This document shows positions 4,423-56,111 of a stretch of DNA of 64,000 nt, in pieces. Origin of the DNA: Dehalococcoidia bacterium. GTDB taxonomy: Bacteria; Chloroflexota; Dehalococcoidia; Bin125. The stretch covers positions 13,081 to 77,080 of the forward strand of contig OZ253504.1 of NCBI GenBank assembly GCA_965262235.1, given 5' to 3'. A model generated the notes under the pieces. The model was not told where the DNA came from, searched no databases, and saw only the letters and a program-made list of their open reading frames with translations. Within the stretch, counting starts at the first letter, position 1, and every line of letters begins with the position of its first letter. Both the position numbers and the translations under genes were made by a program.

Positions 4423-4821
4423 CTATCCGCCGGCGGCCGCAGCCCCGTGGGAGTACCACTCTTCGGTCTCTTCGCCGGGCTCGGGCAGGACCATGCCGCC
4501 CTCCATCGACCACGACGCCGGGCCTTCATTGATGCGCCCGCCCAGCTGCGCCTCGTCGACGCCGGTGATCTCCGCGAACGCCCCGAGCAGGTCGCTGAGC
4601 AGCGCCTGCTTGACCTCTTCGGCCCGGCCGGCCCGATTGAATGCGTCGAGGTAGTACGGCTCCGCGAAGCGAGTGTCGGGCGCCTCGTCAAATACGACGT
4701 GCACGAAGCTGCGCGGCGCGCCGGTCGAGTCGCAGTGAATGTCCGTAACGGCCCTGGCGACGGCCTGCCGTTGCTCAAGTCCGACCGAATCCGAGGGAAC
4801 GACGAAGCGGTAGTAAGGCAT
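4423..4821 (-). CDS. Tautomerase family protein (4-oxalocrotonate tautomerase-like)
   Basis: 132 aa with an N-terminal Met-Pro (catalytic Pro1 after Met removal), the size typical of the cis-CaaD/tautomerase fold. Confidence 0.5.
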   Translation of the reverse strand: MPYYRFVVPSDSVGLEQRQAVARAVTDIHCDSTGAPRSFVHVVFDEAPDTRFAEPYYLDAFNRAGRAEEVKQALLSDLLGAFAEITGVDEAQLGGRINEGPASWSMEGGMVLPEPGEETEEWYSHGAAAAGG

Positions 4822-4881
4822 CTCAGCTCCTCTTCAGCGCGGGCGACCGTCGCCCGCAGGCCACCGAACCATGTTAACCAA

Positions 4882-5208
4882 TCAGGCGTCGCGAGCCGAC
4901 ACGACGAGATCGTCGACGGTGCAGCCGCTGATCTCCATCCACATGTCGGAGATCGCCATCATCAGCTCAACCCGTACGGGCTGCTCGACCCCGCCCTCGA
5001 TCGAGCTCCGCACCAACGAGGTAGTGGAGAGTTCGCCGCCGCGGAAGCCGTACGTGTGGGGAATGTCCTCGAACTCGACCGAGATGTCGGCGGCGTCCGT
5101 CCCCAACACGTTCGCCGTGACGGCGACCAGCCCGTCGCCCAATCGAGCGCGGACATCGCCCCCGATGACGCCCTCCTGCATCGTGCAATTGAACCGGACC
5201 TGGGCCAT
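4882..5208 (-). CDS. Hypothetical protein
   Basis: 108-aa ORF with high GC3. The overlapping plus-strand ORF is Ser/Thr/Arg-rich mirror-frame junk. Confidence 0.35.
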   Translation of the reverse strand: MAQVRFNCTMQEGVIGGDVRARLGDGLVAVTANVLGTDAADISVEFEDIPHTYGFRGGELSTTSLVRSSIEGGVEQPVRVELMMAISDMWMEISGCTVDDLVVSARDA

Positions 5209-5274
5209 CTTCTGCCTCCGTTGCTGCGCTCGCGAATCCGCCCCGACGGTAGCAAAGCGGCTGGAGCGGTTCGA

Positions 5275-30398: not shown

Positions 30399-33300
30399 TC
30401 AGTTCGGGCTGCCGCCGGTGGGCGTCGTGATCGCTGTGAGATTGCGTTTCGCGACCAGCGACTGGCGAGCTGCCAGTCCCCCCGCGAATCGGTCGAGGAA
30501 GGGTTGGCTGAGGAAGTCGGGATGGTCGGGGAAGAATCCGGTCCAACCGTCCCTCGTGTAGTGGTAGAGCGCGTCGACGGAGAGACTGCGGGCGCACTCC
30601 GCCAGCCCATCGATGCTGCCGCCGGTGTAGATCACGGCGCTGAGCGGCGCCTCGGTGAGACCGGGGAGGCAGCGCGCGCTGCCCTCGGGGGCGCGTTTGG
30701 CGATCAGCGCCTCGCCAGGCGCCGGGCCGTCCGGGAACCGCTCGCGGAAGGGCTGGCTGAGGAAGGTGGCATATCCGGGGAAGAATCCGGTCCAGCCATC
30801 ATCAGTGCGGCTATAGAGCGTGTCGACGGAGAGATCGCGAGCGCAATCCTCGAGCTCAGCCAGGCTGCCGCCGATGTAGGTGACGAGACTGAGGTGCTCA
30901 TCGGTGAGACCCGAGAGGCAGTTCTCGCTGCCGGCGGTCGCGCGCCTGGCGATCAGCGCCTGGCCAGCCACCACACCATTCGCGAAGCGGTCGCGGAAGG
31001 GCTGACTGAGGAACGCGGGGTAGTCGGGGAAGAAGCCGGTCCAGCTGTTGTCTGTGTAGTTGTAGAGCGTGTCCACGGAAAGATCGCGAGCGCAATCCGC
31101 GAGGTCAGCCAGGCTGCCGCCGATGTAGGTGACGAGACTGAGGCCCACCTCGGTCAGACCGGCGAGGCAGTGCCGGAGCCATACCCGGTAGACGCGCTCG
31201 CGGCTGCCGTCCGGAGAGATCACGGTGACAGCGATTACCAGCCCGTCCGACACCGCCACCTGGTGACCGTTGTCGGGGTTGGCGTCAGCGTCGGCCGGCA
31301 CGATCGTGACCGTGGCCTCCTCCTGGATCCCCGTGGCCTCCAGCGTTGTCTCGGTCAGACCACTGCTGAGGATGGCGGCGTATGACTTCCGTGCTGGTGA
31401 GAACTGACCGAACGCGATCCCGCTGAGCGATAGCGTCTCGAGCCGCGCGTCGATCGCGTCGGGCATGTTGTAGGTGTAGACTCTGTCGTCCCCGTCGTCG
31501 ACGACGTAGATCACCCCGCCGTCGGACCAGATGCCGCGCGGGTCGCCGTTGCCGGCGCGCAGCAACTGCTGGAAGTCGAACTCCTCCGCCTCGATTCGAT
31601 CGAGCGTCTCGCCGTTGATGCGGTACGCGAAGATACGATTGGCGCCGTCATCGGAGACCCACAGTGTGACGCCGTCGGACCAGATGCCCCGCGGGTCGGC
31701 GTTGAAGTCGTCGAGTTCGTATTCGGTGATCAGTTCGCCAGTTTCGAGGTCGTAGGCAAAGATCGACTCTCTGCGGTTGTCGAGGACGTAGATCACCTCG
31801 CCGTCGGACCAGATGTCGCGCGGGTCACGGTTGTCCTCATGGAGGTCGATATCGAGCTCGGGCACGCGGTCGCCGGTGACGATGTCGTAGGCGAAGAGCA
31901 CGTCCTGGCCGCTGTCGGAGACCCACATTGTTTGGCCGTCGGACCAGATGCCATGGGAGAATCGGTTTCTCTGGTCGAGTTCGAACTCGAGCTCCTCCAC
32001 GCGCTCGCCGGTGTCGAGGTCGTAGACGAAGATATCGTCGGGGCCGGAGGTCGCGTTCTGGAGGACCCAGAGCATCGCTCCGTTGCCCCAGATTCCTGTG
32101 GGCTCGGTGTGGTCGCCGTGCAGTGAGTCGATGTCGCGGGTGACGTTCCACGTAAAATCGACGTCGGATGGGACCGGTTTGGGCGCTGGACCGCCGCCTC
32201 CGCCTCCGCCTCCTCCGCCTCCGCCTCCTCCGCCACCGCCGCCGCCGCCGCCGCCGCCGGTTCCGCCGGTTCCGTCCGGATCGGCGGGCTCGGTACGGAA
32301 GGTGATTCGTTCCACGCCGCGCGTGAATCCATCGTCGAGCGAGGCTTCGAGGATGTACTCCTGGTCGGGGATCAGGTTGGCGACGGTGATCTCGGCCGTG
32401 TGGTCAGTCGTTTCTCCCATCGCAGTCTTCATCTCCGTCGCCCCTCGGCCCACTGCCCCCTTGGTGGTCGTCCCCACTGCCTCGTCAGACACCGGGCCAT
32501 AGCGGAGGTGCACCGTCTCCTCTGCGGTACCGGGCTCACCGATCTTGACAATCGCCTTAGCGGACTCGTCGGTCACATCCTTGACCGTCACCTCGATCAC
32601 CTTCGGCGTGGAGAAGGTGGCCGCGACCGGGCTGGCGAAGTCGGAACTGAGCGACGCCTGTAGGTCATACGTCGTGCTGACCATGAAGGTCGTGATGTCG
32701 CGCGTTGCAGTTTCCGTACCACTGAGTTCCAGCGGTGGGTCGCTCCATGCGGCGGCGGCGTGCTCCCGATACCGCACGAAGACCGTTTGAACCTGACTCT
32801 CCGCGTCGAGGATGGTGACGGTGACGGTCGCCTTCACGGCGGCGCCGGACCCCGACTGCGTGATATCCGTCACGCTGACGTCGGTGAGCGTGGGATCGAA
32901 CGCCGAGGTGGAGAAGGTGTCCGACACGATCGGCGTCGCGTCGAACGGGGTGCTGAACGCCGCCGTCACCTCGTACTCGGTCGACGGAGACAGGCCGGAG
33001 AGGGTCAGCGTGTGTCTGGACGTGTCGGCGGCGAAGTCGACGGGCGCGCTCCATGAGCCGGACGGCGTGCCCGTCGTGCGATAGCCCACGTAGACGGTGC
33101 TGCCATCCGGGTCATCGACCGTGACCGTAACCGTGGCCTCGGACGACGAATCGCTCGTGGCGGTGACGCTCACGATCTCCGGAACTGGTCCGTCGGTCGT
33201 GAAGGTGGTCTGTTGCGTGCCGATCGTAAACGTCGAGTCGAGCGACGCCTGCACGTCGTACTGGGTGCCGGCAGTCAGAGACGTGAGCTCGATCGTTGCG

Positions 33301-36300
33301 GTGTCTGAGTCGTTTGGGTCGGTATCGGCCTTCAGGTCCGCTGTGCTCCAGGCGCCCGGTGTCTCGCCGGCAGTGCGGTATCGCAAGTGGACCTCATGGG
33401 CGTCCCCACCCGCATTCGCGACAATGATCGTCGCCGTCGCGTCCTCTTGGTTGATGCCGGCCTCGTAGACGAAGACATCCTCGACAATTGGGTCATCGCC
33501 CAGGGTGGAGAAGACAGTCGGCCGTACTCCTGAGGTGAAGTCGCTGGCCAGCGTGGCTTCCACCTTGTACTGCGTCGCGGCGGTCAGACTCGAGAGCGGG
33601 ATCGTCGCGTCTGCGTCAGTGCTGGTCGCCGGCTCGGCGGTAGTCCAGCTTTCTGTCGCCGTGGGGGAGTAGCGCAGCCGGACCGTCTGCGAGTCGCCAT
33701 TCGGCGCGGCGATCTTGATCTTGGCGTTCGCGGTCGTCTTGGTCTTGTCGTCGCCAACGATGACCGAGTACACGCTGGGCGGCAGGGTTGTGAAGGTCGC
33801 CGACAGCGTGACATCGGTGTCGGGGAAGCTGGAATCGTATGAGGCCTGGACCTCGTATTCGCGGTCGGAGGTCAGACCACGCAGCGCGAACACCGCCTCT
33901 GTTTCCTCGGCGATGACGGCCTTTTTCGCCGTGCGCCAAGCGTCGGTTCCGGTGCGATATTGCAGGTGTACGAAGCTCCCGTTGGGCGCCGCAACGCCAA
34001 CAGTGACCGTCGCCGTGGTCTGCTTCTCGTCGCCGGCGCTGATCGATTCAACGCTCGGCGGAAGGGTCGTGAAGCTATCGGAGCGGGTCGCATCCGTGTC
34101 CGGGAACGTGTTGTCGTACGACGCTTCAACCTCGTAGCTCGTGTCCGACGTCAGATCGATCAGGGTGAACTCGTACGGGGACTCGCCGGAGTCGACCTCC
34201 GCCGATTCGGGCTTCCAGGTGTCGGTGGCGCCGGCGCGGTATTGGATGTAGACGCGGCTGCCGTTCGGTTCCGTGACATTCACGGTAATCTTCGCGCCGG
34301 TCTGGCTCTCGTCGCTCGCGACCACCGAATCCACGCTGGGTGGTTCGGTCGCGAACTTCCCGATAGTCGTCTCGTCGGTCGGGAAGGTGTCGTCGAGCGA
34401 GGCTTCAAGCTCGTAGTCGGTCCCGGAGGTGAGGTCGCTCAGTGAGAAGTCTGCGTGTGCGCTGGTTGTGTCCTCCGGCTCGGTTGCCTCCCAGGCCATC
34501 TCGCCCTTGAACCGATAGCGAAGATGGACTTTCTTCGAGTCGCTGTTCGGCGCGCTGATGATGGCCCTGATGGTGGCCGTGGTCTGGGTCTTCTCGATCG
34601 CGCTGACGGACTCGATCGCCGGTGGCAGCGTCGTGAAGCTGGCCGTCTTGGTTCGGGTCGTCGGGAAGCTGCTGTCGAACGACGCCTCCACGGTGTACTC
34701 GCGGTCCGCTGTGAGCCCGGAGAGCAGGAAGTCCACCGTCAACACGCCGACCTCCACCGCAAGCGAGGTCGTCTCCCAGTTCCCGCTGCTCGCCGTCTCC
34801 CGATAACGCAGGTTGACGAGGCCGCCATTGGCCTGGCTGACGGTGACCGTCGCCGTCGCTTCGGTCTGGCTGATCGAGGCCTCGGCCACTTCGACCGACT
34901 CGACGCCAGGAGGTGAGGACCAGCCCGAATACTGGCGGTTGTTGTTCAGGGGGTACGCAAGCAGACTGTCTCTGGTCGAGGCCGAGCCGGTGTTGGAGCT
35001 GACCCAGACGATGTCGCCGTCGGACCAGAAGCCGTTGATTGTGCCATGCCCGGAAGGCAAGGTGATGTCGTGGACGGGGATGTGGTGGGCGTTGGCCAGC
35101 CCACCCGACAGATCAAGCGCAAACAGTTTCTTCGTCGAGCATTGCGTCGCCAGGTACAGCAGGCTCCGCGATGCATCGTGCCAGATGCCTGCGACCTGAT
35201 CATGCTCACACACTGAATCCGGAACGACGATATCCTTGCTGTAGTCCCGCTGGCCGTAGGCGGCATCATATGCAAACAACGTGTCGCGTCCCGACGCGGC
35301 GGCCCAGAATGTCGAGCCGTCGCCGAAGAATGCGTTGGCCTCGGGAATCTGTACACGGTCCACCCCGGGCGGATGGTAATCGGACGCACGCATGTCGCCG
35401 TTCGCCTGCACAAGATCGCTTGAGAGGAATACACCGTCTGATTCCCGGTATGGAACGAACGCGACTTCCTCGGAAGTATTGATCGATTCCAGGTAGTTCG
35501 CGGTCACCGTCCAAAGGCGCGTCTCGTCGCCCCACAGGCCGCCGTCCACATCCGCGTAGTCAGCCGGCGGGACACTGGTGGAGTCACTGTGCGGCGTGAT
35601 GTCATCGTCGGCTTCTGCCGCGCCGGTCGCGAGGTCGTATGCGTAGAGCTTGCTGTCCGATGCGTGCGCGAGCCAGATCGTGTCGCCGTCCGACCAGACG
35701 CCGTGAGCCGAATTCTCAACGATCGTGCCGGCGGTCAGCTCGATATCTCGCAGCGCCGCGCAGCGATCGGTGGCGTAGTAGACGGCGCGCACTCGGTAGC
35801 GGTACGACGCTTGGGGGTCGACGCTGTCATCGAGGTAGCTGGCCGAATCCGCGTCGAGGCAAGTCAGGAAGGCGAAAGCGCCGTCGTCGTCGGCCCGCTC
35901 GATCTCGTACTGATAGACATCTTCGCGCAGGCCGGGAGTGATTGGCGTGGGCGGTGGACTCCAACTGAGCCGCGGGCCGTCGGTCTCGTCGGCGCGAGCG
36001 AAGTTCGTCGGACCTGCACCGCCGTCGGCCACTGTGACCATGACGTCGGGCAGTGTGAGAACGTTATATTCGATCGCGCTGCCGCCGATCGTGTGGGACA
36101 GCTGGAAGCCGATGTTTTGCGTGACGGAGTCGGCGGGTGCGCTGACGATCACGTACTGCGGCGTCTCCCAGTTCGACGGCGTGAAGCTGAGCCTGGAGGC
36201 GCTCGTGGTCAAGCCCGGGGTCACGTCCGGGGCAGTTGAGATGGAGATGGTGACAGAACCTGAGGGCTCTGAGATAATCGCAGCCTTGTAGTAGTCCCGG

Positions 36301-37715
36301 CCACCCTCAGGAACGGTGATGACAGTTGGGTTGATGATTCCACCGGTGTCATCGTCGATCACGGTCGTCACCACGTCGACGGATGACCCCACGTATATGC
36401 TGTCGGTACCGCCGGCGCCGGAGATTCGGATCGTCACCTCGTCGTTGGCGCCGTCGTCGTCATCGCCAGCGGTGACGGTCACCGTGTGACCTGAAGCCCA
36501 GTTCGACTCGGTGAACTGGAACCGCGCCGGAACGGCCGTCAGATCGCCGCCGACGTCGACGCGGAACTCGACCTCGGGCGTGTCGCTCCCTCTGGCAGTG
36601 GGCGGGGTGCACAGCGCGACCGTGATCGTGACTGTCCCACTCTCGGGAATGTAGAGACGCCGGGGGTCGACTCTTACGCATCCCCCAGCCCCTTCGTCGT
36701 CCGCGATCTCAACGTTCACGCGGGGTCCTGCGAGGCCGTTGTAGTTGGCGTCGCTGCTGGAACTGGCGAAGCTAACACTGATTGGGCCATCCACGTCCCA
36801 TCTACCACGCTCCGCGTTATCCGTGCCTGAGACAGTGAACGGTTGCGGCGTGCCCCAATCGGTGCTGGTAAACGTCAATGACGATGGATCGACCATGACG
36901 TTTGCGTTGCCGTTGCGGGTCGCGGTCACCGTCACATCCGCCGTCGGTGGAGCTTCCAGCATCACCTGAATAGTCCCCGAGTCGCCCTCGGCGATCCGCA
37001 TCCGAGCCGGCGACGCGCTGATCCCCGCGTCGTCGTCGTCTTCGATCACCACCTGCACGTCCCGCACATCCAGGCTCAGGTACTCCGACGCGCTGCCTGT
37101 CTTGACTTCGTGAGTGATGATGGCCCTGCCGTCGTCCGAGTCCGCGTCATCCAGGCCGGTGACGGTGATGATCTGCGGGCTGCGCCAGGCCGTGGGCGTG
37201 AACTTGACCTCCGTTGGGTAGGCCGTGACGCCCGCACCGGCGCTGATCACGACGGTTACGTTGGCGCTCGGCGCGCTTCGCAGGTAAATCCAATACCTGC
37301 CGCTGCCGCCCTCGTCGATCTTCAGATAGGTCGGGGTGACGAGCACCTCAGGCTGCAGCGTCTGAGTGGGTGCGAAGCCACCGCTTGTGCTGGTATCGGC
37401 AACAGACGAGAAGACAGCGCGTAGCTGCCCTGACGTGGGTACTCTGCTCACGCCGTTGGAGGCGCGGTCTGGGTCCAGCGGCGAATTCGTAGCTGTCGCG
37501 GTCCCTGGATGTGCAACGGCGTGGTCGATCGAGAGTGAGCCGGCGTCTAGGGACGCCGTGTCGAGGTCTTGGCCATGGGCGGACCAGGAGCTGGACAACA
37601 AGGCGCCAAGCAGGGCAACTCCTGCGACTCCGAGGAGCAGCAACGTGTGGCGACTGCGGACAATGCCGACGACCGCGGCGCATACAATCCGCGTGCGCCG
37701 CGTGAGTTCGCGCAT
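30399..37715 (-). CDS. Giant secreted multi-repeat surface protein (about 2440 aa): beta-sandwich repeats, beta-propeller blades, about 9 FN3-like repeats, a poly-Gly hinge and three C-terminal ~83-aa modules
   Basis: Signal peptide 'TLLLLGVAGVALLGALLSSSWSAHG'. Repeated 'HLRYR...W...TSDREYEVQASYDSSFP' units. 'DPRGIWSDG..LWVSD' blades. 'CLxGLTE...WTGFFPD' occurs three times. The authentic start is probably the ATG at 37715 (MRELTRR), because the first 5 codons of the tracked ORF lie inside the IS5 inverted repeat. Confidence 0.7.
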   Translation of the reverse strand: MRELTRRTRIVCAAVVGIVRSRHTLLLLGVAGVALLGALLSSSWSAHGQDLDTASLDAGSLSIDHAVAHPGTATATNSPLDPDRASNGVSRVPTSGQLRAVFSSVADTSTSGGFAPTQTLQPEVLVTPTYLKIDEGGSGRYWIYLRSAPSANVTVVISAGAGVTAYPTEVKFTPTAWRSPQIITVTGLDDADSDDGRAIITHEVKTGSASEYLSLDVRDVQVVIEDDDDAGISASPARMRIAEGDSGTIQVMLEAPPTADVTVTATRNGNANVMVDPSSLTFTSTDWGTPQPFTVSGTDNAERGRWDVDGPISVSFASSSSDANYNGLAGPRVNVEIADDEGAGGCVRVDPRRLYIPESGTVTITVALCTPPTARGSDTPEVEFRVDVGGDLTAVPARFQFTESNWASGHTVTVTAGDDDDGANDEVTIRISGAGGTDSIYVGSSVDVVTTVIDDDTGGIINPTVITVPEGGRDYYKAAIISEPSGSVTISISTAPDVTPGLTTSASRLSFTPSNWETPQYVIVSAPADSVTQNIGFQLSHTIGGSAIEYNVLTLPDVMVTVADGGAGPTNFARADETDGPRLSWSPPPTPITPGLREDVYQYEIERADDDGAFAFLTCLDADSASYLDDSVDPQASYRYRVRAVYYATDRCAALRDIELTAGTIVENSAHGVWSDGDTIWLAHASDSKLYAYDLATGAAEADDDITPHSDSTSVPPADYADVDGGLWGDETRLWTVTANYLESINTSEEVAFVPYRESDGVFLSSDLVQANGDMRASDYHPPGVDRVQIPEANAFFGDGSTFWAAASGRDTLFAYDAAYGQRDYSKDIVVPDSVCEHDQVAGIWHDASRSLLYLATQCSTKKLFALDLSGGLANAHHIPVHDITLPSGHGTINGFWSDGDIVWVSSNTGSASTRDSLLAYPLNNNRQYSGWSSPPGVESVEVAEASISQTEATATVTVSQANGGLVNLRYRETASSGNWETTSLAVEVGVLTVDFLLSGLTADREYTVEASFDSSFPTTRTKTASFTTLPPAIESVSAIEKTQTTATIRAIISAPNSDSKKVHLRYRFKGEMAWEATEPEDTTSAHADFSLSDLTSGTDYELEASLDDTFPTDETTIGKFATEPPSVDSVVASDESQTGAKITVNVTEPNGSRVYIQYRAGATDTWKPESAEVDSGESPYEFTLIDLTSDTSYEVEASYDNTFPDTDATRSDSFTTLPPSVESISAGDEKQTTATVTVGVAAPNGSFVHLQYRTGTDAWRTAKKAVIAEETEAVFALRGLTSDREYEVQASYDSSFPDTDVTLSATFTTLPPSVYSVIVGDDKTKTTANAKIKIAAPNGDSQTVRLRYSPTATESWTTAEPATSTDADATIPLSSLTAATQYKVEATLASDFTSGVRPTVFSTLGDDPIVEDVFVYEAGINQEDATATIIVANAGGDAHEVHLRYRTAGETPGAWSTADLKADTDPNDSDTATIELTSLTAGTQYDVQASLDSTFTIGTQQTTFTTDGPVPEIVSVTATSDSSSEATVTVTVDDPDGSTVYVGYRTTGTPSGSWSAPVDFAADTSRHTLTLSGLSPSTEYEVTAAFSTPFDATPIVSDTFSTSAFDPTLTDVSVTDITQSGSGAAVKATVTVTILDAESQVQTVFVRYREHAAAAWSDPPLELSGTETATRDITTFMVSTTYDLQASLSSDFASPVAATFSTPKVIEVTVKDVTDESAKAIVKIGEPGTAEETVHLRYGPVSDEAVGTTTKGAVGRGATEMKTAMGETTDHTAEITVANLIPDQEYILEASLDDGFTRGVERITFRTEPADPDGTGGTGGGGGGGGGGGGGGGGGGGGGGGPAPKPVPSDVDFTWNVTRDIDSLHGDHTEPTGIWGNGAMLWVLQNATSGPDDIFVYDLDTGERVEELEFELDQRNRFSHGIWSDGQTMWVSDSGQDVLFAYDIVTGDRVPELDIDLHEDNRDPRDIWSDGEVIYVLDNRRESIFAYDLETGELITEYELDDFNADPRGIWSDGVTLWVSDDGANRIFAYRINGETLDRIEAEEFDFQQLLRAGNGDPRGIWSDGGVIYVVDDGDDRVYTYNMPDAIDARLETLSLSGIAFGQFSPARKSYAAILSSGLTETTLEATGIQEEATVTIVPADADANPDNGHQVAVSDGLVIAVTVISPDGSRERVYRVWLRHCLAGLTEVGLSLVTYIGGSLADLADCARDLSVDTLYNYTDNSWTGFFPDYPAFLSQPFRDRFANGVVAGQALIARRATAGSENCLSGLTDEHLSLVTYIGGSLAELEDCARDLSVDTLYSRTDDGWTGFFPGYATFLSQPFRERFPDGPAPGEALIAKRAPEGSARCLPGLTEAPLSAVIYTGGSIDGLAECARSLSVDALYHYTRDGWTGFFPDHPDFLSQPFLDRFAGGLAARQSLVAKRNLTAITTPTGGSPN
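30402..31169. repeat. Three tandem ~249-270-bp coding repeats (C-terminal triplicated module of the giant protein)
   Basis: Protein units CLAGLTE.., CLSGLTD.., CLPGLTE.. have near-identical DNA blocks, for example 'cggtccagc..atc..gtgtagt..tagagcgtgtcgacggagag' recurring. Confidence 0.8.
32192..32270. repeat. Poly-(GGN)/(ccgcctcc)n coding tract for about 26 consecutive Gly
   Basis: Direct reading of 'ccgcctccgcctccgcctcctccgcc...gccgccgccgccgcc'. Confidence 0.8.
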
Positions 37716-37760
37716 GAATCGCCTGCTTCCGTGCACGTGCTCACTCCGATGATCACTTAG

Positions 37761-38947
37761 GAACGCTCTGAACAAGGCAGGGATGTGGGCTGGTTACGAT
37801 CGGGGCAGCGACCGCCGAAGGGAGCGCCTCGATGCAGGAACCGACGTTTGGCAGCCTGGAGTTTGCGCACAAGAAGCGGAAGACCCGGCGTGAGCGGTTC
37901 CTGGAGCGGCTCGAGTCGCTGGTGCCCTGGGCCGCGTTGGAGGCGCGCGTCGAACCGGTCTATCCCAAGCCGGGGCGCGGACGGCGGCCCTACCGCCTGG
38001 CCGTGATGCTGCGCGTTCACTGCGTGCAGCTCTGCTACAACCTCAGCGACCCGGCGCTCGAGGACTTGCTCTACGAGGCCGAGTCGGTACGCCGCTTCTG
38101 CGGACTGAACCTCAGTGGGCCGATCCCTGACGAGTCGACGATCCTGCACTTTCGTCATCTCTTGGAGCGGCATCAGCTGGGCGAGGCGCTGCTGCAGACG
38201 ATCAACGCGCACCTGGCAGGCCAGGGTCTGCGGCTGCAGGCCGGCACGATCGTGGACGCGAGCATCATCGCGGCGCCGTCCTCGACCAAGAACCAGCGTC
38301 GCCAGCGCGACCCGGAGATGCATCAGACCAAGAAGGGCAACCAGTGGCACTTCGGGATGAAGCTGCATATCGGGGTGGACGCGGACCTGGGCCTGACCCA
38401 CAGCCTGAGCACGACCGCGGCGAACAGCGCCGATGTGACCGAGGCGCATCGGCTCTTGCACGGCGGCGAACGAGCGGCCTGGGGCGACGCCGGCTACCAG
38501 GGCGCGGAGCGGCGTCCCGAACTGGCCGACTCGGCGGTCGAGTGGCGGGTCGCGATGCGTCCCGGCCGCAGGCGCATGCTGCCGCCGGACAGCCCACTCG
38601 CCCAGCGCGAGCGTGAGCGGGCTTCGCTGCGGGCCAAGGTCGAGCATCCCTTCCTCTACATCAAACGGCGCTTCGGCTACGACAAAGTGCGCTATCGCGG
38701 CCTGGCCAAGAATCACCAGCGGCTGGCGCTGTTGCTCGGCTTCGCCAATCTGTTGATCGCCGAGTCGCAACTGGCCTGAACCGGGGCGGACTGCGCCCCT
38801 CGCCCGGCTCGGCCCCACACATGCGGCCAACCGGACCCTCAGCACCGCCCCAACCCATCGCCCCGCTCGCCCACTCACCGCAGTGACCCAACCGCCCGCG
38901 CCCAGTCAGCACGAAGTCCGCTCAATCGCCTCTTGTTCAGAGCGTTC
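37761..38947. mobile_element. IS5-family insertion sequence (1187 bp) with imperfect terminal inverted repeats and a 4-bp TTAG target duplication
   Basis: Left end 'gaacgctctgaacaagg' against the reverse complement of the right end 'gaacgctctgaacaaga'. TTAG at 37757-37760 and 38948-38951, consistent with the YTAR target of IS5. Confidence 0.75.
37832..38779 (+). CDS. IS5-family DDE transposase
   Basis: 315 aa with 'HFGMKLHIGVDADLGLTHSLSTTAANSADV...GDAGYQG', the DDE motif region of IS5/ISL2-like transposases. Confidence 0.85.
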   Translation: MQEPTFGSLEFAHKKRKTRRERFLERLESLVPWAALEARVEPVYPKPGRGRRPYRLAVMLRVHCVQLCYNLSDPALEDLLYEAESVRRFCGLNLSGPIPDESTILHFRHLLERHQLGEALLQTINAHLAGQGLRLQAGTIVDASIIAAPSSTKNQRRQRDPEMHQTKKGNQWHFGMKLHIGVDADLGLTHSLSTTAANSADVTEAHRLLHGGERAAWGDAGYQGAERRPELADSAVEWRVAMRPGRRRMLPPDSPLAQRERERASLRAKVEHPFLYIKRRFGYDKVRYRGLAKNHQRLALLLGFANLLIAESQLA

Positions 38948-44370: not shown

Positions 44371-45945
<1,575 letters not shown>

Positions 45946-45957
45946 TGAGCCACAGTC

Positions 45958-46380
45958 ATGCCGCTCCAACTGGACCACCTCAGAGACTCCATCAAGGCGC
46001 TGGTCGACTTGCTGGCAGTCACCGAGAACGAAGCGCGCATGGCGCAATTCACGGAAGTCGAACGCAACGGCATTCGCGCCGGCGTCATCCAGAATTTCGA
46101 GGTCACCTACGAACTCGCTTGGAAGCTGATCGCGCGTTGGCTGGAGACCAACATCAGCACCGATATCGTGCGCGACGCCACGAGACGCGAATTCTTCCGT
46201 ATCGCCGCCCGATATCTCCTGATCGCTGACGTAGCTGACTGGATGCGCTACCACGAAGCGAGGAACACGACCTCCCACAGATACAACAAGAAAATGGCGG
46301 AGATCGTCTATCTGGCCGCCAGGGACTTCGCCCATGACGCGCAGCGACTCCTCACAACACTGGAAGCGCGCAATGATTGA
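45958..46380 (+). CDS. HEPN-type nucleotidyltransferase substrate-binding protein (HI0074 family), HEPN half of an MNT-HEPN pair
   Basis: 'VIQNFEVTYELAWKLI' and 'HEARNTTSHRY' (Rx4H) match HI0074/NTase_sub_bind. The stop overlaps the next ATG. Confidence 0.8.
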   Translation: MPLQLDHLRDSIKALVDLLAVTENEARMAQFTEVERNGIRAGVIQNFEVTYELAWKLIARWLETNISTDIVRDATRREFFRIAARYLLIADVADWMRYHEARNTTSHRYNKKMAEIVYLAARDFAHDAQRLLTTLEARND

Positions 46381-47881
46381 CCTCAACCCGCATCACCTCG
46401 AGACGGTCAAGCGCATCCTCGCCGAGCATGTGCCCGACTGCGAGGTGCGCGCCTTCGGCTCGCGCGCCACCTGGACCGCGTGGGAGTACTCGGACCTCGA
46501 TCTGGCCGTCGTCAGTCACGAGCCGCTCGATCGGCGAACCAGCGCCAACCTGCGCGAAGCGTTCGAGGAGTCGGACCTCCCAATCCGCGTCGATGTCGTG
46601 GATTGGGCAACGCTGACAGATGGATTCCGGCAGGCAATCGAGGGAGACCTCGTCGTACTGAAAGAAGCAGCGACATCGAGCGACTGGCGCGAAACCACAC
46701 TCGGCGACGTGATCGAGCTGAAGCGTGGCTATGACCTTCCTCAACGCGAACGTGTGCCCGGTCCCGTGCCTCTCGTCTCCTCGTCTGGAATCAGCGACCA
46801 TCACTCGGAGGCCAAAGTCAAGGGTCCCGGAGTGGTGACAGGACGTTACGGCACGCTTGGACAGGTTTACTACATCCAGGACGACTTCTGGCCCTTGAAC
46901 ACGACACTCTATGTCCGTGATTTCAAGGGCAATGATCCGAGGTTCATCAGCTACTTTCTGCAGGGTCTCGATTTTTTCGCGTACTCTGATAAAGCTGCGG
47001 TGCCGGGCTTGAATCGAAACCATCTCCACACGGCGATCGTGCACCTCCCCCCACTCGACGAACAACGACGTATCGCCGGCATCCTCGGCGCCCTCGACGA
47101 CAAGATCGAGCTCAACCGACGCATGAGCCAGACCCTCGAAGCCATGGCCCAAGCCCTCTTCAAGTCCTGGTTCGTCGACTTCGACCCCGTCCACGCCAAG
47201 GCCGAGGGACGGTCAAGCGGCCTCCCGCCGAACCTAGACGCGCTCTTCCCCCACTCGTTCCAAGAGTCGGAGTTGGGCGAGATCCCGTCGGGCTGGGAGC
47301 TAGGGTCACTGGGCGATGTGGCGACGGAGCGAAGGCGCACGGCGAAACCGAGAGACGTTGATCCTGCAACGCCATACATCGCTCTGGCGCATATGCCGCA
47401 ACGGAGCATCGCCCTCAATCAATGGGCCGTCGCAGAGGGAATCGAAAGCGGCAAGTTCGCCTTCAAACGTGGGGAACTCCTATTCGGCAAGCTCCGCCCC
47501 TATTTCCACAAAGTTGGCGTCGCGCCGCTGGACGGGGTGTGCTCCACCGACATCGTGGTGGCAGCTCCCAAGTTGCCGGGCTGGTTTGGATTCGTCCTGG
47601 GCCACATGGCCAGTGCGGCGTTCGTCGACTACACCGACGCGGGATCAACGGGCACGCGAATGCCGCGCACAAGCTGGACACGAATGGCGCAGTACCAGAT
47701 TGTGATGCCGCCCGACGAGGTGGCAGCGGCATTCTCCGCGAGCATCCGCCCGAGCATTGACGGCATGATCTGCACTACCCATAAGTCACGCACGCTTGGC
47801 GTTCTGCGTGATACGCTGATGCCACGCTTGATCGAGGGGGCGTTCAGGAACGATACGTACAGGTCCGGAGGACATGGGTGA
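46373..47881 (+). CDS. hsdS: Minimal nucleotidyltransferase (MNT, HI0073-like) domain fused in frame to the Type I R-M specificity subunit HsdS
   Basis: Residues 1-100 carry 'RAFGSRATWTAWEYSDLDLAV' (NTase fold). From 'WRETTLGDVIELKRG' on there are two TRDs and the central 'PPLDEQRRIAGILGALDDKIELNRRMSQTLEAMAQALFKSWFVDFDPV'. No stop or ATG separates the two parts. Confidence 0.7.
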   Translation: MIDLNPHHLETVKRILAEHVPDCEVRAFGSRATWTAWEYSDLDLAVVSHEPLDRRTSANLREAFEESDLPIRVDVVDWATLTDGFRQAIEGDLVVLKEAATSSDWRETTLGDVIELKRGYDLPQRERVPGPVPLVSSSGISDHHSEAKVKGPGVVTGRYGTLGQVYYIQDDFWPLNTTLYVRDFKGNDPRFISYFLQGLDFFAYSDKAAVPGLNRNHLHTAIVHLPPLDEQRRIAGILGALDDKIELNRRMSQTLEAMAQALFKSWFVDFDPVHAKAEGRSSGLPPNLDALFPHSFQESELGEIPSGWELGSLGDVATERRRTAKPRDVDPATPYIALAHMPQRSIALNQWAVAEGIESGKFAFKRGELLFGKLRPYFHKVGVAPLDGVCSTDIVVAAPKLPGWFGFVLGHMASAAFVDYTDAGSTGTRMPRTSWTRMAQYQIVMPPDEVAAAFSASIRPSIDGMICTTHKSRTLGVLRDTLMPRLIEGAFRNDTYRSGGHG

Positions 47882-49311
47882 ACTCACAGTATCATTCGCG
47901 CATTAGCCGTCTTGAAAGGGAAATCGCGGGGCATGACAAAACTATAGGAACACTTGCCAAACAAGAGGCCGATTCGGTAGCCAAGATAAACAAGGCGCAA
48001 TCCGCCATGAATAAGGCCGCTAGTATCTCCACGCGCAACTCCAAGGCACGCGAACACGAACGGGAGACCAAACGCCTTGCAGAAACCAAGAAAAAGCAGT
48101 CCGACATCTCAACGAAGCGTGCGAACGCGACGAAAACACTTCGCGACTACCAGAAGCGCCAAGCCGGTGCGGACGAATCCGCGCGGAAGCGGGAAGCGCG
48201 GGAACAACGAAAGTTGATGCAGGAACGCGAATCCCATCAACGGCGCATGAATCAAGCAGCCACAGAATCCTCGTGGCGTTTTGAGGCTCAGCCCCAATCC
48301 GATAACACGACTGATGTTTTACAGCTAGAAGAGGATCCGATGGCAGACGTAGCGAAGCAAAACCCAACAGCCTTCGTTTCCTACTCGTGGGACAACGAGG
48401 AGCACAAATCGTGGGTTCGTGATCTGGCCCGCCGGCTAAGGCGTGACGGCATTGACGTCAAGCTTGACCAGTGGGAGACCGCTCCAGGTGACCAACTGAC
48501 AGCGTTCATGGAGCGTGGCGTTCGCGAGCATGATTTTGTCGCGATCATATGCACGCGTAAGTACAAGGAACGGTCGGACTCTCGCGCCGGTGGCGTCGGG
48601 TATGAGGGCGACATTATGACCGCAGAGGTCTCACGGGAGCAGAATCATCGCAAGTTCATCCCGATCTTGAGGAGCGGAACTTGGGAGACAGCGGCCCCCT
48701 TCTGGGTGGAAGGCAAGTACTACATCGATCTTCGCGGGAATCCGTACGATCAAAGGGCATACCATGATTTGCTCCTAACGCTGCGAGGAGAGCGCTCAAC
48801 GGCGCCACCTCTTGGACAACGTCAGACCAGAGATGCAGAACCGGCGAGAGGCACCGAACCCGACCGACGCAAGGAGAGCGAAGAGGCGGGCGGAGCAGAC
48901 CCAGAAGAAATACGTATTACTGGAGTCATTGTCGACGAGGTAACGGAACCCACCAACGACGGCAGGCCTGGCAGTGCCTTGTACACTGTCCCACTCAGGC
49001 TTTCCGCAACTCCCTCAAGCGTTTGGTCGCAACTCTTTGTCAGAAATTGGAATAGCCCGCCGACGTGGACGCCAATGCACCGCCCCGGCATCGCTCGCGT
49101 TAGCGGAAGTAAGGTCCTGCTTGAAGGGACGATGATTGAGGAAGTGGAGAAAGTACACCGCGACACTCTCCAGGCAGTGGTTAGTGCCACCAATCGGGAC
49201 TACGGGATCTACGTGGCTGACTTGGAACGCAAACGCCGCTCGAGGGAAGAGGAGCGAGAGCAGCACCACCGGACCGTGGGCGATGTCGCGGGCAGAATCA
49301 CATTCGAGTGA
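47878..49311 (+). CDS. Coiled-coil / TIR-like (TIR_2 or SEFIR-type) domain protein with an unknown C-terminal domain
   Basis: GTG start overlaps the hsdS TGA, with GGAGGA 6 nt upstream. Residues about 155-290 read 'AFVSYSWDNEEHKSWVRDLARRLRRDGIDVKLDQWETAPGDQLTAFMERGVREHDFVAIICTRKYKERSDS'. GC is about 55%. Confidence 0.6.
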   Translation: MNSQYHSRISRLEREIAGHDKTIGTLAKQEADSVAKINKAQSAMNKAASISTRNSKAREHERETKRLAETKKKQSDISTKRANATKTLRDYQKRQAGADESARKREAREQRKLMQERESHQRRMNQAATESSWRFEAQPQSDNTTDVLQLEEDPMADVAKQNPTAFVSYSWDNEEHKSWVRDLARRLRRDGIDVKLDQWETAPGDQLTAFMERGVREHDFVAIICTRKYKERSDSRAGGVGYEGDIMTAEVSREQNHRKFIPILRSGTWETAAPFWVEGKYYIDLRGNPYDQRAYHDLLLTLRGERSTAPPLGQRQTRDAEPARGTEPDRRKESEEAGGADPEEIRITGVIVDEVTEPTNDGRPGSALYTVPLRLSATPSSVWSQLFVRNWNSPPTWTPMHRPGIARVSGSKVLLEGTMIEEVEKVHRDTLQAVVSATNRDYGIYVADLERKRRSREEEREQHHRTVGDVAGRITFE

Positions 49312-49328
49312 TCGCAAGTGTGTAATCG

Positions 49329-52463
<3,135 letters not shown>

Positions 52464-52661: not shown

Positions 52662-55600
52662 TCACCGGGTGTTGCCACAGTGTCTGAGCTTCGGGTTGCT
52701 GAAATCGCGGATACCGAAGCTGAATCGCTCCAGCCCCCCCGGAATGCACCCCTCGAGTCTGTTGCCGCCCAGATACAGAAGGGTCAGGCGCGGCAACGTC
52801 CCGAACCCTGTCGGGATCTCGCCGGTCAATTCGTTGCCCGACAACCCGATGGTCTGCAGCTTGCTCAGCCCGGCCAACTCCACCGGGATCTCGCCGCTGA
52901 GCTGGTTGCTGCTCAAACCAAGGTGTCGGATCTCCGAGAGCCGGCCGAATTCCGGAGGGATGGGGCCGGTCAGTTCGTTGCCGCTGAGCTCGAGCACTTG
53001 CAGGTCCAACAGCCTGCTCAGGGCGAGCGGGATCCGGCCGCCCAACGCTCGCCTCGACAGGTTGACGGCGATGACTCGACCGGACCACGGATCGACCGTC
53101 ACTCCGTCCCACTGGCCCAAGGCGAGATCAGCGCTCCAGTTCAGCCGGGCGTCAACAGCCAGCACCTGAGCAGCTTCGAGCAATGCCGCGCAATCGGCGG
53201 CGCTCGCGGGCGAGTCGCACGAACTGATCAGGTGCGGCGGTTCCTGTCTACGAATCGAGGCCGCAACGGAATCGAGCAGGAGTGGGACGTTTCGGCCGCG
53301 GGAGTCTCTAATCAGCTCGCGTCCCAGTTCCGCTCCGCTGACGGCGTCAATCTCGATCAACGAACCGCTCGACTCATCACGCAGCAGAATGCTGCGGTAG
53401 CAGTCGCCTTCTCTTGCGCAGATCGTCTCGGCCCGTTCCAGCGTCAGCCGCATTCCGCGCGGCACGTCCGCGATGAGGTAGTCCGAATACCCGATGTTGT
53501 AAGTCCTCCCACCATCAACAGGCTGAAGGATGTACATCCAGGGGAAGCCGTTGCCTGCGAGCGGAAGGTCGAGCGGTTGCACGCGCGCAGACTCGACGAT
53601 GCGATCGAACAATGCTGAGACGCTGACCTCGCATTCATGAGGACCTTCGGTGACCGAGCGAGCGAACTCGTCACCCTTGAACGGATCGATCACCACGTGA
53701 GAGTCACTTCTCTTTTCCACGATCTGAACGAGAATCTGCCCGTTGTCGTCGCGGTACATCTCACCGAGACTGAACTCCCCTTGCTCTGGAAGATCGACCA
53801 CGAGCTGGAACGTGACTCGGTAGGCGCCCGACCGCTCGGTGGAATCGCGGGGCATATACGGAATGTCGTCCTCGCCAAACGAAAGAGTCGATTCGATCGA
53901 GGAGCCGTCATCCCACGTTGCCGGACACTCGCAGTAGCGGAGCCCCGCCTCTTCGCGGTCGAACACTGAGTCCTTGAGCGCGATCGGCATGCAACCATCG
54001 AATTGGTTGCCGCCCAGCCACAGATACCAGTCCCATACCGCATAGATCTCCGTGAACTCGTGCGGAATCGAGCCGGTCAACCGGTTCCCGCTCAGATCCA
54101 GCCAGCCCCCGTCGAGGCGCGCCAGGTCCGCGGGAATCTCGCCGCTCAGCCGGTTATTCGCCAGCCTCAGCTCACGCAGGTTCTCAAGTGCACCGAGCGT
54201 GGCGGGTATTGCCCCGCTCAGCCGGTTATCGGTCAGCCATAGCTCTCGAAGTTCAGTGAGTGCGCCGAGTTCCGCCGGGATCGCTCCGCTGAGCTGGTTC
54301 GAATCCAGGATCAGATGGGTGAGGTTGCGGAGATGCCCGAGTTCGGCGGGAATCTCGCCGGTCATTCGGTTGCCGCTCAGCGACAGCCACGCGAGGCTGG
54401 TCAGGTTTGCCAGGACCGCCGGAATCCGGCCGCTGATCCCTTGACCAGAAAGTCCAAGAGCCCGAACTCGTCCTGTCGATGCGTCCAACCCGACACCGAT
54501 CCAATCCGCGAGCGGGGTGGCGGCGCTCCAGTTCAAGATCTCGGAATCGCCGGCCAGAATTTCCTTTGACTCGAGCAGAGCGGCACAGTCGTTGATCAGC
54601 TCTTGGCTCTGCTCGAAATCGGCCAGGGCGGGGCCGCTCGCGCAGGCTTCGACCAGCAATGGATTGAGCGGGGGCGCCGACACGAGCACCTGGACGGCGT
54701 CGCACCAGGGCAAATCGATGGTCCCGATCGGCGTGCCGTCGTCCCTCACGGGCACCGACAACTTGGACCACAACGCCGTCGGAATGCAGCCGGTCAATCG
54801 ATTGTTGACGAATCCGAAATGGTTCAGGTTCGGCAAGTCGGCGACTTCTTGCGGGATCGGTCCCGTCAATTGATTGGTGTCCACCGACAAATCCCACAGA
54901 TTCGTGAGGTTGCCCAGCTCGGATGGGATCTGGCCTGTCAGCCGGTTGCCACCCAAGCGCAGGAAGTTCAGGTCCTTGAGCGAACCGAGCTCGGGCGGGA
55001 TCTCGCCCGTCAGCATGTTGCCGCTGAGGATCAATGCCTGAAGGAAAACGGCTGCGGCGAGTTCGCGAGGGATCTCACCGCTCAGGCGATTGCCTCCCAG
55101 ATACAGGATCCCCAGCCCGGCCCTACCGAACTCAGCCGGGATCTCTCCGCTGAGCTGATTACCCCTGAAGTCCACAAACCAGAGGTACGGCAGCGCAGCA
55201 ATCTCCACCGGGATCTCACCTTCAAGCTGATTTTCGAGCAGCCACAGCTCTCGCAGTCTTGTGATCTGGCCCAACTCGGCTGGGATCCGGCCGGTTAGCT
55301 TCGAACCGGTGATATGGATGACGCTCAAACCCGAGAGCAGACCGAGTTCTCGCGGGATCTCTCCCGTTAGCTCGTTGCGACGGAACTTCAGTATCCGCAG
55401 GCGATCGAGTCTGGCCAGTCCCGGCGGAATCCGTCCACGCAGGGCGGACTCGATGGAGATCTCGGTGACGCGCGGCGGCCGCCCGCTCACCGTGATCCCC
55501 AGCCACTCTTCGATGGGTCGTTCGGCGCTCCAGTTCAGTTCCTCCGCGCCGCCGCTGAGGGTGTCTCGCTCCTGAAGCAGAACGGCGCAGTCGCGAACGA

Positions 55601-56111
55601 GTTCGGTGTTGCGCTCTGGATTGGCGACGGCCGTCCCATTCGAGCAGTCCGCCAGCGCGCTATCGTCCGTCGGCGGGACATACAGCTCAATGTTCCCGTA
55701 GCGGTAGCGACCCGTCGAACTGAACCCGTCGTCCAGGGCCAATGGGATCATCCCCAGCCTGAGCCACGATTCCCCTTCGGCTCGAGCGCTGATGAAGATG
55801 CTCCGACCATCGGCAACCGCCTGCGAGACTCGCAACTCGACGGTTGTGGCGTCATCGTCCTGCGCAGCAGCGTCAAACGCGATGTCGCCGTAGCGGTACC
55901 GCCCCGAAAAGCTAAACCCGTCGTCCAGCGGCAGCGCCACAGTGCCCAGCGTCAGCCAGGCGCCACCCGCCGGCCGTGCGCTGATATAGAGATTCCGCTC
56001 GTCTCGCTCGTCCTGCCAGACGCGAACCTCGACCGTTGCCCTGTACTGGCTGTAAGCCGTCGGCGTGACGCCGAGGAGCAGGAGTGTCGTCAGGGCCAGG
56101 ATCACGTGCAT
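52662..56111 (-). CDS. Secreted leucine-rich-repeat protein with three plant-type LRR modules, each preceded by an LRRNT-like cap
   Basis: Signal peptide. Repeated 24-residue units 'LxxLxxLxLxxNxLTGxIPxxLGxL'. Three 'LNWSA...W.GV...GRV..L.LS' caps. Duplicated N-terminal ~130-aa domain. Confidence 0.75.
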   Translation of the reverse strand: MHVILALTTLLLLGVTPTAYSQYRATVEVRVWQDERDERNLYISARPAGGAWLTLGTVALPLDDGFSFSGRYRYGDIAFDAAAQDDDATTVELRVSQAVADGRSIFISARAEGESWLRLGMIPLALDDGFSSTGRYRYGNIELYVPPTDDSALADCSNGTAVANPERNTELVRDCAVLLQERDTLSGGAEELNWSAERPIEEWLGITVSGRPPRVTEISIESALRGRIPPGLARLDRLRILKFRRNELTGEIPRELGLLSGLSVIHITGSKLTGRIPAELGQITRLRELWLLENQLEGEIPVEIAALPYLWFVDFRGNQLSGEIPAEFGRAGLGILYLGGNRLSGEIPRELAAAVFLQALILSGNMLTGEIPPELGSLKDLNFLRLGGNRLTGQIPSELGNLTNLWDLSVDTNQLTGPIPQEVADLPNLNHFGFVNNRLTGCIPTALWSKLSVPVRDDGTPIGTIDLPWCDAVQVLVSAPPLNPLLVEACASGPALADFEQSQELINDCAALLESKEILAGDSEILNWSAATPLADWIGVGLDASTGRVRALGLSGQGISGRIPAVLANLTSLAWLSLSGNRMTGEIPAELGHLRNLTHLILDSNQLSGAIPAELGALTELRELWLTDNRLSGAIPATLGALENLRELRLANNRLSGEIPADLARLDGGWLDLSGNRLTGSIPHEFTEIYAVWDWYLWLGGNQFDGCMPIALKDSVFDREEAGLRYCECPATWDDGSSIESTLSFGEDDIPYMPRDSTERSGAYRVTFQLVVDLPEQGEFSLGEMYRDDNGQILVQIVEKRSDSHVVIDPFKGDEFARSVTEGPHECEVSVSALFDRIVESARVQPLDLPLAGNGFPWMYILQPVDGGRTYNIGYSDYLIADVPRGMRLTLERAETICAREGDCYRSILLRDESSGSLIEIDAVSGAELGRELIRDSRGRNVPLLLDSVAASIRRQEPPHLISSCDSPASAADCAALLEAAQVLAVDARLNWSADLALGQWDGVTVDPWSGRVIAVNLSRRALGGRIPLALSRLLDLQVLELSGNELTGPIPPEFGRLSEIRHLGLSSNQLSGEIPVELAGLSKLQTIGLSGNELTGEIPTGFGTLPRLTLLYLGGNRLEGCIPGGLERFSFGIRDFSNPKLRHCGNTR

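Follow-up and report, generated by a model that had tools for sequence, protein, structure and literature searches.

A minimal nucleotidyltransferase domain fused to HsdS, downstream of a HEPN gene, in a type I restriction–modification operon

In type VII toxin–antitoxin (TA) systems of the HepT/MntA kind, a minimal nucleotidyltransferase (MNT) transfers one to three AMP moieties to the tyrosine of the RX4HXY motif of its partner, thereby blocking the HEPN ribonuclease (RNase) (PMC7641770, PMC11586414). RX4HXY is the catalytic motif of the RNase and its tyrosine is the AMP acceptor in homologues (PMC7641770, PMC11586414). For RX4HXY and for GSX10DXD, the motif of MNT antitoxins as defined in PMC7641770, RNase activity, tyrosine AMPylation and neutralisation have been shown experimentally in HepT/MntA (PMC7641770, PMC11586414), and in nearly all dyads the MNT gene is reported to lie upstream of the HEPN gene (PMC3710099, PMC7641770). 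HEPN RNases also occur with restriction–modification (R-M) systems. PrrC, an anticodon nuclease of the HEPN superfamily, is encoded in an hsd cluster, held latent by the Hsd proteins and unleashed when phage attack the R-M system (PMC3506569, PMC3710099), and Anantharaman et al. described R-M systems in which a HEPN domain is fused to the endonuclease, the helicase or another ATPase subunit, fusions to methylases being absent (PMC3710099). Here we describe a locus in a stretch of 64,000 nucleotides from a Dehalococcoidia bacterium (contig OZ253504.1, positions 13,081 to 77,080; the whole stretch is called the window and all coordinates are given within it unless a locus is named). In this locus a HEPN gene lies between hsdM and hsdS of a type I R-M operon, and an MNT domain is fused in frame to the specificity subunit, HsdS. 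The architecture hsdM–HEPN–MNT::hsdS is real and conserved among relatives.

The fused gene and the HEPN gene before it

The MNT::hsdS open reading frame (ORF) occupies 46373–47881 of the forward strand and encodes 502 residues from the supported ATG, with its stop codon at 47879–47881; the MNT frame enters a complete HsdS with neither a stop nor an ATG in between. A preliminary description of the window had given the product as 503 or 515 residues. The former figure needs correction, there being 503 codons only if the stop is included, and the latter stands as the length of the longest ORF, which opens at the ATG at 46334. This upstream start is disfavoured, since the proteins of relatives begin 'MIDLNP' with a conserved overlap, and the conserved start is that at 46373.

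The first 97 residues (46373–46663, +) form an MNT domain of the HI0073 type (PF18765, PF01909), and residues 2–100 match HI0073 itself (1NO5) at 2.4e-23 in a sequence search of the PDB. The domain is nearer to HI0073 than to the Shewanella MntA. It carries the GSX10DXD motif expected of a type VII MNT as G29-S30...D41-L-D43, the codons of which lie at 46457–46501 (+) as read from the translation. A linker of three residues, 98–100 (E-A-A; 46664–46672, +), was delimited by alignment of the junction as reaching from the last MNT strand to the start of unfused HsdS homologues, and is followed by the HsdS part, residues 101–502 plus the stop (46673–47881, +). This part is recognised by PF01420 and, from residues 101–104 onwards, by the PADLOC model Specificity_I (1.5e-84). 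It has the two target recognition domains (TRDs) and the two long conserved helices that characterise HsdS, in the order TRD1, central conserved helix (residues 228–268, including LDDKIE...FKSWFVDFDPV), TRD2 and C-terminal helix (residues 448–488), as is also seen in structure prediction and structural comparison. Alignment to HsdS proteins, which the preliminary description had proposed as a check, places the beginning of HsdS homology at T101: the unfused homologues, of ~405 residues and 60–71% identity, have the N-terminus M-x-x-E-W-R-E-x-x-L-G-E-V-I-E-L-K-R-G-Y-D-L-P, and their first residue, the initiating Met, aligns with T101 of the fusion (..VVLKE-AA-TSSDWRETTLGDVIELKRGYDLP).

An AlphaFold2 model of the fusion, built with an input of 51 fused homologues, has a predicted local distance difference test score (pLDDT) of 88.3 and a predicted template modelling score (pTM) of 0.69. 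It consists of an MNT fold over residues 1–97, a short linker with pLDDT ~76–77 and a canonical HsdS with the helices at 228–268 and 448–488. In Foldseek the MNT part superposes on 1NO5 with a template modelling (TM) score of 0.95, a root-mean-square deviation of 0.9 Å and 50% identity, and the remainder on the HsdS structures 1YF2, 7VRU and 1YDX. The PADLOC hidden Markov model (HMM) for S subunits PDLC03138, of 485 positions, aligns to the fusion from its residue 1; proteins of the MNT::HsdS type are therefore already present, unrecognised, within curated sets of S subunits.

The gene immediately upstream (45958–46380, +) encodes a HEPN protein of 140 residues belonging to the HI0074/NTase_sub_bind family, with PF08780 (9e-30) as its only domain and a TIGR01987 score of 76.6 bits, above the cutoff of 55.8. 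In the PDB sequence search its matches include HI0074 (1JOG, 1.6e-15) and a HEPN toxin from Legionella (8XDJ, 3e-09). The RX4HXY motif of type VII HEPN toxins is present as R102-N-T-T-S-H107-R-Y109 (RNTTSHRY in the translation; codons at 46261–46284, +). The gene is separated from hsdM, the stop codon of which is at 45943–45945, by a spacer of 12 nucleotides (45946–45957, +, from the sequence). At its other end it overlaps MNT::hsdS by 8 nucleotides (ATGATTGA, 46373–46380, +), the ATG at 46373 lying inside the last HEPN codons ahead of the stop TGA at 46378–46380. This arrangement suggests translational coupling of the putative toxin with the antitoxin–HsdS protein. The preliminary description had this part of the locus right, namely an HI0074-type HEPN gene with an Rx4H motif beginning 12 nucleotides after hsdM, its stop overlapping the ATG of an MNT gene, and an MNT frame that runs on without stop or ATG into a complete HsdS.

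Relatives, gene order and exchange

A scan of one genome per species of GTDB with the N-terminus of MNT subgroup A yielded 581 relatives, and the best 80 loci were analysed, their gene order being determined by phmmer comparison of the window proteins with six-frame ORFs. The order hsdM, HEPN, MNT-HsdS, variable cargo, hsdR is found in nearly all of the 80, and in 72 the MNT and HsdS lie within one stop-to-stop ORF. The remaining eight comprise four degraded fusions, in which TRD1 continues past the MNT and then breaks, one locus at a contig end and three apparent standalone pairs. The hosts, for the most part metagenome-assembled genomes, include Dehalococcoidia, other Chloroflexota, Caldilineaceae, Poribacteria, Acidimicrobiia (Actinomycetota), Latescibacterota, Rhodothermales, Acidobacteriota, Nitrospirae, Gamma- and Deltaproteobacteria, Phycisphaera and Victivallales. 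Viral contigs were also searched and no relatives were found in them.

All 72 MNT domains of the fused loci have the GS...DXD motif, and an intact HEPN gene lies directly upstream in 65, of which 60 retain RX4HXY. The overlap between HEPN and MNT::hsdS is 8 nucleotides in 48 of the 72 and 4 nucleotides in 15 (63 combined). The distance from the last MNT strand to the conserved Trp at the start of HsdS ranges from 5 to 37 residues (7 in the window). TRD1 is of more than 15 unrelated types and a Met persists at the former HsdS start in only five of the 72, so that TRDs have been exchanged inside a persistent fused frame and HsdS can in all likelihood be translated only as the fusion. We considered a separate HsdS made from an internal start and find it unlikely, given those five Met residues and the lack of any ATG between M1 and ~M250 in the window. 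The only nearby in-frame alternatives are a CTG at codon 96 and a GTG at codon 113, the latter within the conserved HsdS N-terminus and without a Shine-Dalgarno-like sequence. Proteolytic cleavage of the linker into free MNT and HsdS is possible.

The preliminary description had also called for a search for N-terminally extended HsdS proteins with nucleotidyltransferase domains. Dozens of them came up when the complete fusion was used as a database query, 487–547 residues long, with 43–78% identity over 97–99% of the query and with both nucleotidyltransferase and Methylase_S Pfam domains. A word-indexed search with the MNT domain alone had given short proteins only, many of them frameshifted or truncated fusions. 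This picture was corrected when 1.84 billion cluster representatives were searched without an index, again with the MNT domain alone. There were 1411 clusters at E<=1e-10; among the best 150 of these, 72 have at least 450 residues (68 of them with the HsdS central motif), 37 are intermediate and mostly partial, and 41 have fewer than 200 residues. When fused and short states are placed on the MNT tree there are at least 39 changes between them, a noisy figure; with sequences of so little length, and with broken fusions mixed into the 'short' class, the tree is unfit for counting fusion events.

Fusion to HsdS is also found in two other MNT subgroups. In a subgroup-B locus (L090) the interval 4800–6000, from Fic to MNT::hsdS, is repeated sequence in which ORFs in different frames give near-identical peptides. 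Tandem MNT-MNT-HsdS variants of ~600–640 residues recur (P0024, P0280, P0299). A HEPN-MNT-HsdS triple fusion was met in a single metagenomic case (P0067, L088 412–2388), a 658-residue ORF followed by PARIS-like genes. We have given it no weight as evidence, as it is a single instance and its HEPN keeps RX4H without the acceptor Tyr.

Plasmids provide both the fused and the split form. In Zymomonas mobilis ATCC 10988 the plasmid pZMOB01 (PLSDB) has an 'HI0074 family nucleotidyltransferase substrate-binding subunit' at 3–392 and, at 389–1972, a 527-residue 'restriction endonuclease subunit S' that is an MNT::HsdS, overlapping the HEPN gene by 4 nucleotides and followed by hsdR (WP_014466388 and WP_014466389 are the protein accessions of the pair). 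Finished Zymomonas plasmids with the fused gene are present in RefSeq. In an Acetobacter ascendens plasmid a HEPN gene is followed by a 100-residue MNT ending in TAA, by four further codons and by an hsdS that has an ATG of its own. The frame is shared throughout, which shows that the split and fused forms differ essentially by one stop codon. The Acetobacter arrangement is plausibly the ancestral state, or else a reversion. Defence islands also contain standalone pairs of this subfamily (L082–L085), in which the HEPN gene likewise precedes the MNT gene and overlaps it by 8 nucleotides. Standalone MNT proteins of this subfamily (110 residues, in a cluster of 63 members) also occur without a HEPN neighbour in L086 (7001–7333) and L087 (1742–2074). 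Their genes lie close upstream of one for a large protein with a SIR2_2 domain, possibly another kind of MNT–effector pairing. The suggestion in the preliminary description of a very recent loss of a stop codon, or of a sequencing error, does not survive these comparisons as far as this lineage is concerned: the fusion is present in 72 of 80 loci, in many phyla, with diverse TRDs and linkers, and in cultured Zymomonas. Loss of a stop codon is instead likely to be the ancient origin of the fusion, since the Acetobacter plasmid has the MNT, the TAA, four codons and hsdS in one frame.

The closest relative, L081 (metagenome ERZ25071132), is syntenic with the window at 92–97% DNA identity. Its MNT-hsdS frame is broken by a deletion of one nucleotide (GAGGG-GA in place of GAGGGAGA), the frame being intact in the window, L001 and L003, and from the sequences L081 appears to be a pseudogene or an assembly error and the window the majority state. 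Comparison of the two gives a ratio of non-synonymous to synonymous change (pN/pS) of 0.39 for HEPN and 0.19 for MNT, indicating purifying selection. The similarity is lost over 47296–49342 of the window (7930–10516 of L081), a stretch that opens exactly where TRD2 begins and closes where hsdR begins. TRD2 and the cargo gene or genes have been swapped as a block between these close relatives; L081 has three or four unannotated ORFs within the exchanged block instead of the bSEFIR gene of the window. The HEPN proteins of the two are only 67% identical, compared with 97% for the adjacent overlapping MNT and 98% for HsdR. The divergence is concentrated in the catalytic C-terminal half (46138–46377), where the window has RNTTSHRY and L081 has RNDTAHLY, which suggests that the toxin gene has recombined locally or evolved at an accelerated rate.

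In the window, hsdM, HEPN, MNT::hsdS, bSEFIR and hsdR form a co-directional, tightly packed cluster, as seen from its ORFs and sequence. The type I methyltransferase subunit hsdM (44371–45945, +; 524 residues) has both the HsdM_N domain (PF12161, 4e-26) and the N6 adenine methyltransferase domain (PF02384, 1e-104). The cargo slot between hsdS and hsdR is occupied in the window by a bSEFIR/TIR-domain defence gene (47878–49311, +; 477 residues; PADLOC bSEFIR 3.9e-66, PF13676 1e-20, PF08357 9e-15). It starts with a GTG that shares 4 nucleotides with the end of hsdS, and it is therefore probably co-transcribed with the R-M genes. The bSEFIR protein has a predicted coiled-coil N-terminus of ~160 residues matching the PADLOC candidate PDC-S66. 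The type I restriction subunit hsdR (49329–52463, +; 1044 residues) has the N-terminal nuclease, SF2 motor and C-terminal domain of HsdR proteins (PF04313, PF18766, PF11867) and scores 589 bits with TIGR00348, against a cutoff of 285. A scan of the operon for promoters and terminators gave no signal above background. In 57 of 62 related loci a cargo slot of 0.7–6.3 kb (median ~2.3 kb) lies between MNT::hsdS and hsdR, the commonest contents being AAA_15/AAA_21 with DUF4276 (PARIS/AriAB-like, PADLOC HEC-01), TIR/SEFIR/ThsB_TIR, DUF1828, 8xMP, DUF433, Fic, Mrr_cat and PIN. Judged by its annotated contents, this gap collects cargo of the abortive-infection type, which would place the locus in a defence context. 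The G+C content is 0.57–0.61 over HEPN, MNT::hsdS and bSEFIR (46000–49500) and 0.65–0.68 in hsdM, hsdR and the flanks, a dip consistent with horizontal exchange of the central part. The R-M locus is flanked by an ORF for a 1149-residue leucine-rich-repeat protein with an N-terminal signal-like sequence (52662–56111, −) and, on the other side, by an ORF of 2458 residues (30399–37775, −). Both flanking ORFs, with the sponge-symbiont-type taxa of the relatives, suggest a host-associated (sponge-microbiome), Chloroflexota-like genome.

Possible function and alternative explanations

We propose that the locus is a single type I R-M operon into which a type VII pair resembling HepT/MntA, of the HI0074/HI0073 family, has been taken up, such that the antitoxin is now part of HsdS and its loss would free the RNase. 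We put this forward tentatively, at somewhat less than an even chance. The HEPN protein would be a small RX4HXY RNase toxin, and its cognate antitoxin the N-terminal GSX10DXD domain of HsdS. By homology with HepT/MntA, the MNT domain probably AMPylates HEPN, with Tyr109 as the expected acceptor, and would in this way keep the RNase off. Given the architecture, newly made HEPN would be silenced only where intact MNT::HsdS is still being made; if the specificity subunit or the operon were lost or shut off, as through loss of the locus, shut-off by a phage or an attack on the R-M complex, the RNase would be set free, with growth arrest or abortive infection as the outcome. The R-M system would thus carry its own backup or guard, with a logic like that of PrrC with EcoprrI. 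Such a PrrC-like coupling of RNase release to the status of the R-M system is plausible by analogy and in keeping with the conservation of the catalytic motifs and the overlap of the two genes. A built-in coupling between assembly of the R-M complex and control of a HEPN RNase had been the other suggestion of the preliminary description. We are more doubtful of a stronger form of the proposal, in which the restriction complex itself would be the antitoxin, the MNT being carried on HsdS in M2S1 or R2M2S1 and neutralisation needing the assembled complex. If this were true, phage anti-restriction (Ocr-like DNA mimics, inactivation or shut-off of HsdS or HsdM) would stop AMPylation and release the RNase. 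The R-M system would then guard itself and amount to a compact, enzymatic counterpart of PrrC or PARIS occurring across many phyla.

Several observations weigh against the main proposal. The MNT domain scores 34.1 bits with the NCBIfam equivalog model MntA_antitoxin, below its cutoff of 60. In seven of the 72 fused loci there is no intact HEPN gene upstream; two fused loci have split HEPN remnants (L029, L046), and in L044 hsdM abuts MNT::hsdS directly with no HEPN. Four Poribacteria loci have at the HEPN position a protein of 426–586 residues with Schlafen-AlbA_2 and HATPase_c_4 domains, encoded upstream of MNT::hsdS at 6180–7934 in L045, 6181–7935 in L050, 6181–7941 in L075 and 6728–8008 in L077; in the last of these the Schlafen-type gene has the same 8-nucleotide stop/start overlap with MNT::hsdS. 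These loci hint that an HsdS-borne MNT may have a different effector partner in Poribacteria, and under the stronger form of the proposal the substitution would suggest that such an MNT is able to control more than one kind of RNase effector. The subgroup-B locus L090 (hsdM, Fic, ..., MNT::HsdS) and the orphan subgroup-C locus L089 also have no HEPN. Fused loci without HEPN mean that the MNT can outlive its partner or have another target. The deletion in L081 parts MNT from HsdS and leaves the MNT itself undamaged, and MNT alone can therefore remain standing. Conservation of the fusion is itself no proof of adaptive coupling, since it may persist as a ratchet: once the HsdS start has been lost, re-splitting needs both a stop and a new start. 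Furthermore, type VII antitoxins are catalytic, and loss of the MNT does not readily explain how an already AMPylated HEPN would be reactivated. The loci without HEPN, together with the frameshifts tolerated just after the MNT, caution against assuming that the coupling is tight.

Three other explanations were weighed. The first is that a missing stop or an indel, from sequencing or assembly or in a pseudogene, has created a false fusion in the window. The nearest relative does differ by a frame-breaking indel of one nucleotide near the junction, and a frameshift accounts for many of the short 'MNT' entries in databases. The window frame, however, agrees with L001, L003 and 70 other loci, leaving L081 the odd one out, the junction residues align with fused homologues at 77–78% identity over 97% of the length, and the finished Zymomonas plasmids in RefSeq carry the fused gene. 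From these sequence comparisons an artefact is very unlikely and effectively refuted. A neutral ratchet, in which the MNT stop was lost, the N-terminal appendage is harmless to HsdS, reversion needs two changes and nothing is coupled, has a good deal more to be said for it. It would account for the unfused Acetobacter intermediate with its single TAA in a common frame, the wide range of linker lengths (5–37 residues), the standalone HEPN-then-MNT pairs in L082–L085 with their 8-nucleotide overlap, the (noisy) at least 39 changes of state on the MNT tree and the fusions that lack HEPN. We regard it as a serious but less likely alternative. Against it, the fusion predominates among the closest relatives, which belong to many phyla; three MNT subgroups show it, tandem MNT-MNT-HsdS forms among them; the catalytic motifs of both partners are kept; and the linker in the model of the window protein is short and not predicted to be disordered (pLDDT ~76).

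We rate as equally serious the explanation that the pair is a selfish or stabilising addiction module, in which fusion of the antitoxin to HsdS mainly penalises loss or disruption of hsdS or of the locus through post-segregational killing, with no sensing of phage, and so stabilises a type I system that would otherwise be easily lost. There are precedents for TA pairs inside type I loci, such as phd-doc in the tvr locus of pneumococcus (PMC6265443). The HEPN–MNT module is placed exactly where TRDs recombine and cargo is exchanged (the divergence from L081 at 47296–49342 and the G+C dip at 46000–49500), and the toxin-first order with translational coupling fits tight co-expression. Against addiction, degraded or frameshifted fusions in assemblies (L081, L025, L047, L053, L059) indicate that disruption downstream of the MNT is tolerated, and experiments on the tvr phd-doc pair gave no addiction phenotype (PMC6265443). 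Addiction is compatible with the defence function that we propose.

Significance and comparison with known systems

MNT::HsdS is a real, widespread and apparently undescribed architecture assembled from two well-known systems. We found no description of an MNT-HsdS fusion in the full-text literature searched, including key comparative-genomics papers, though REBASE notes or subscription journals may hold one; in particular we found no mention of an S-subunit fusion in PMC3710099. Apparent matches in the literature were merely strain genotypes containing 'hsdS'. What is new here is that an immune complex and the off-switch of a toxin are covalently linked, and that this link is conserved, the biochemical principle itself not being new. 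The link bears on the question of what ever frees a type VII HEPN toxin from an antitoxin that acts catalytically, and on the manner in which a toxin inside an R-M locus is coupled to the immune system that surrounds it. The embedded TA function is invisible in censuses of defence and TA systems because the proteins are labelled only 'restriction endonuclease subunit S' and have been absorbed into S-subunit HMMs (PDLC03138). With the fusion conserved in hundreds of genomes and a tractable organism available in Zymomonas mobilis with pZMOB01, the coupling of R-M to abortive infection and the release of type VII toxins become directly testable.

The closest described systems are the type VII HepT/MntA pairs (1JOG/1NO5, Shewanella 5YEP/7AER, Aphanizomenon 7AE2, Legionella 8XDJ/8XEH), in which, as here, an RX4HXY HEPN adjoins and overlaps a GSX10DXD MNT. 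There the antitoxin is a free protein of ~100–140 residues, whereas here it is the N-terminal domain of a 502-residue HsdS; the toxin comes first here, in place of a pair of small genes with the MNT upstream, the pair lies inside an R-M operon, and the AMPylation, demonstrated in HepT/MntA, is expected here from homology. The type Ic R-M system EcoprrI, with PrrC, likewise has a HEPN RNase gene within its hsd cluster; the HEPN gene of the window is placed between hsdM and hsdS, as it is in 65 of the 72 related fused loci. The large PrrC protein joins an N-terminal ABC-type NTPase domain to a C-terminal HEPN anticodon-nuclease domain, and its homology to the HEPN protein of the window is limited to the HEPN fold; the latter has 140 residues and no ABC-type NTPase. 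PrrC is silenced by non-covalent binding to the R-M proteins, whereas the presumed silencer here is an enzymatic MNT covalently attached to HsdS. Covalent joining, which fixes stoichiometry, is shared with the single-chain MNT-HEPN protein FhepTA (PMC13000451) and with the fusions of HEPN to R-M subunits (PMC3710099); the MNT of FhepTA is fused to its own toxin, and here the antitoxin is fused to the specificity subunit. Finally, the phd-doc pair tvrAT of pneumococcus (PMC6265443) and the PARIS-like, Fic and TIR modules resemble the present locus in being TA or abortive-infection genes situated between hsd genes and co-transcribed with them. They differ in being separate genes, none of them reported as a covalent part of an Hsd subunit.

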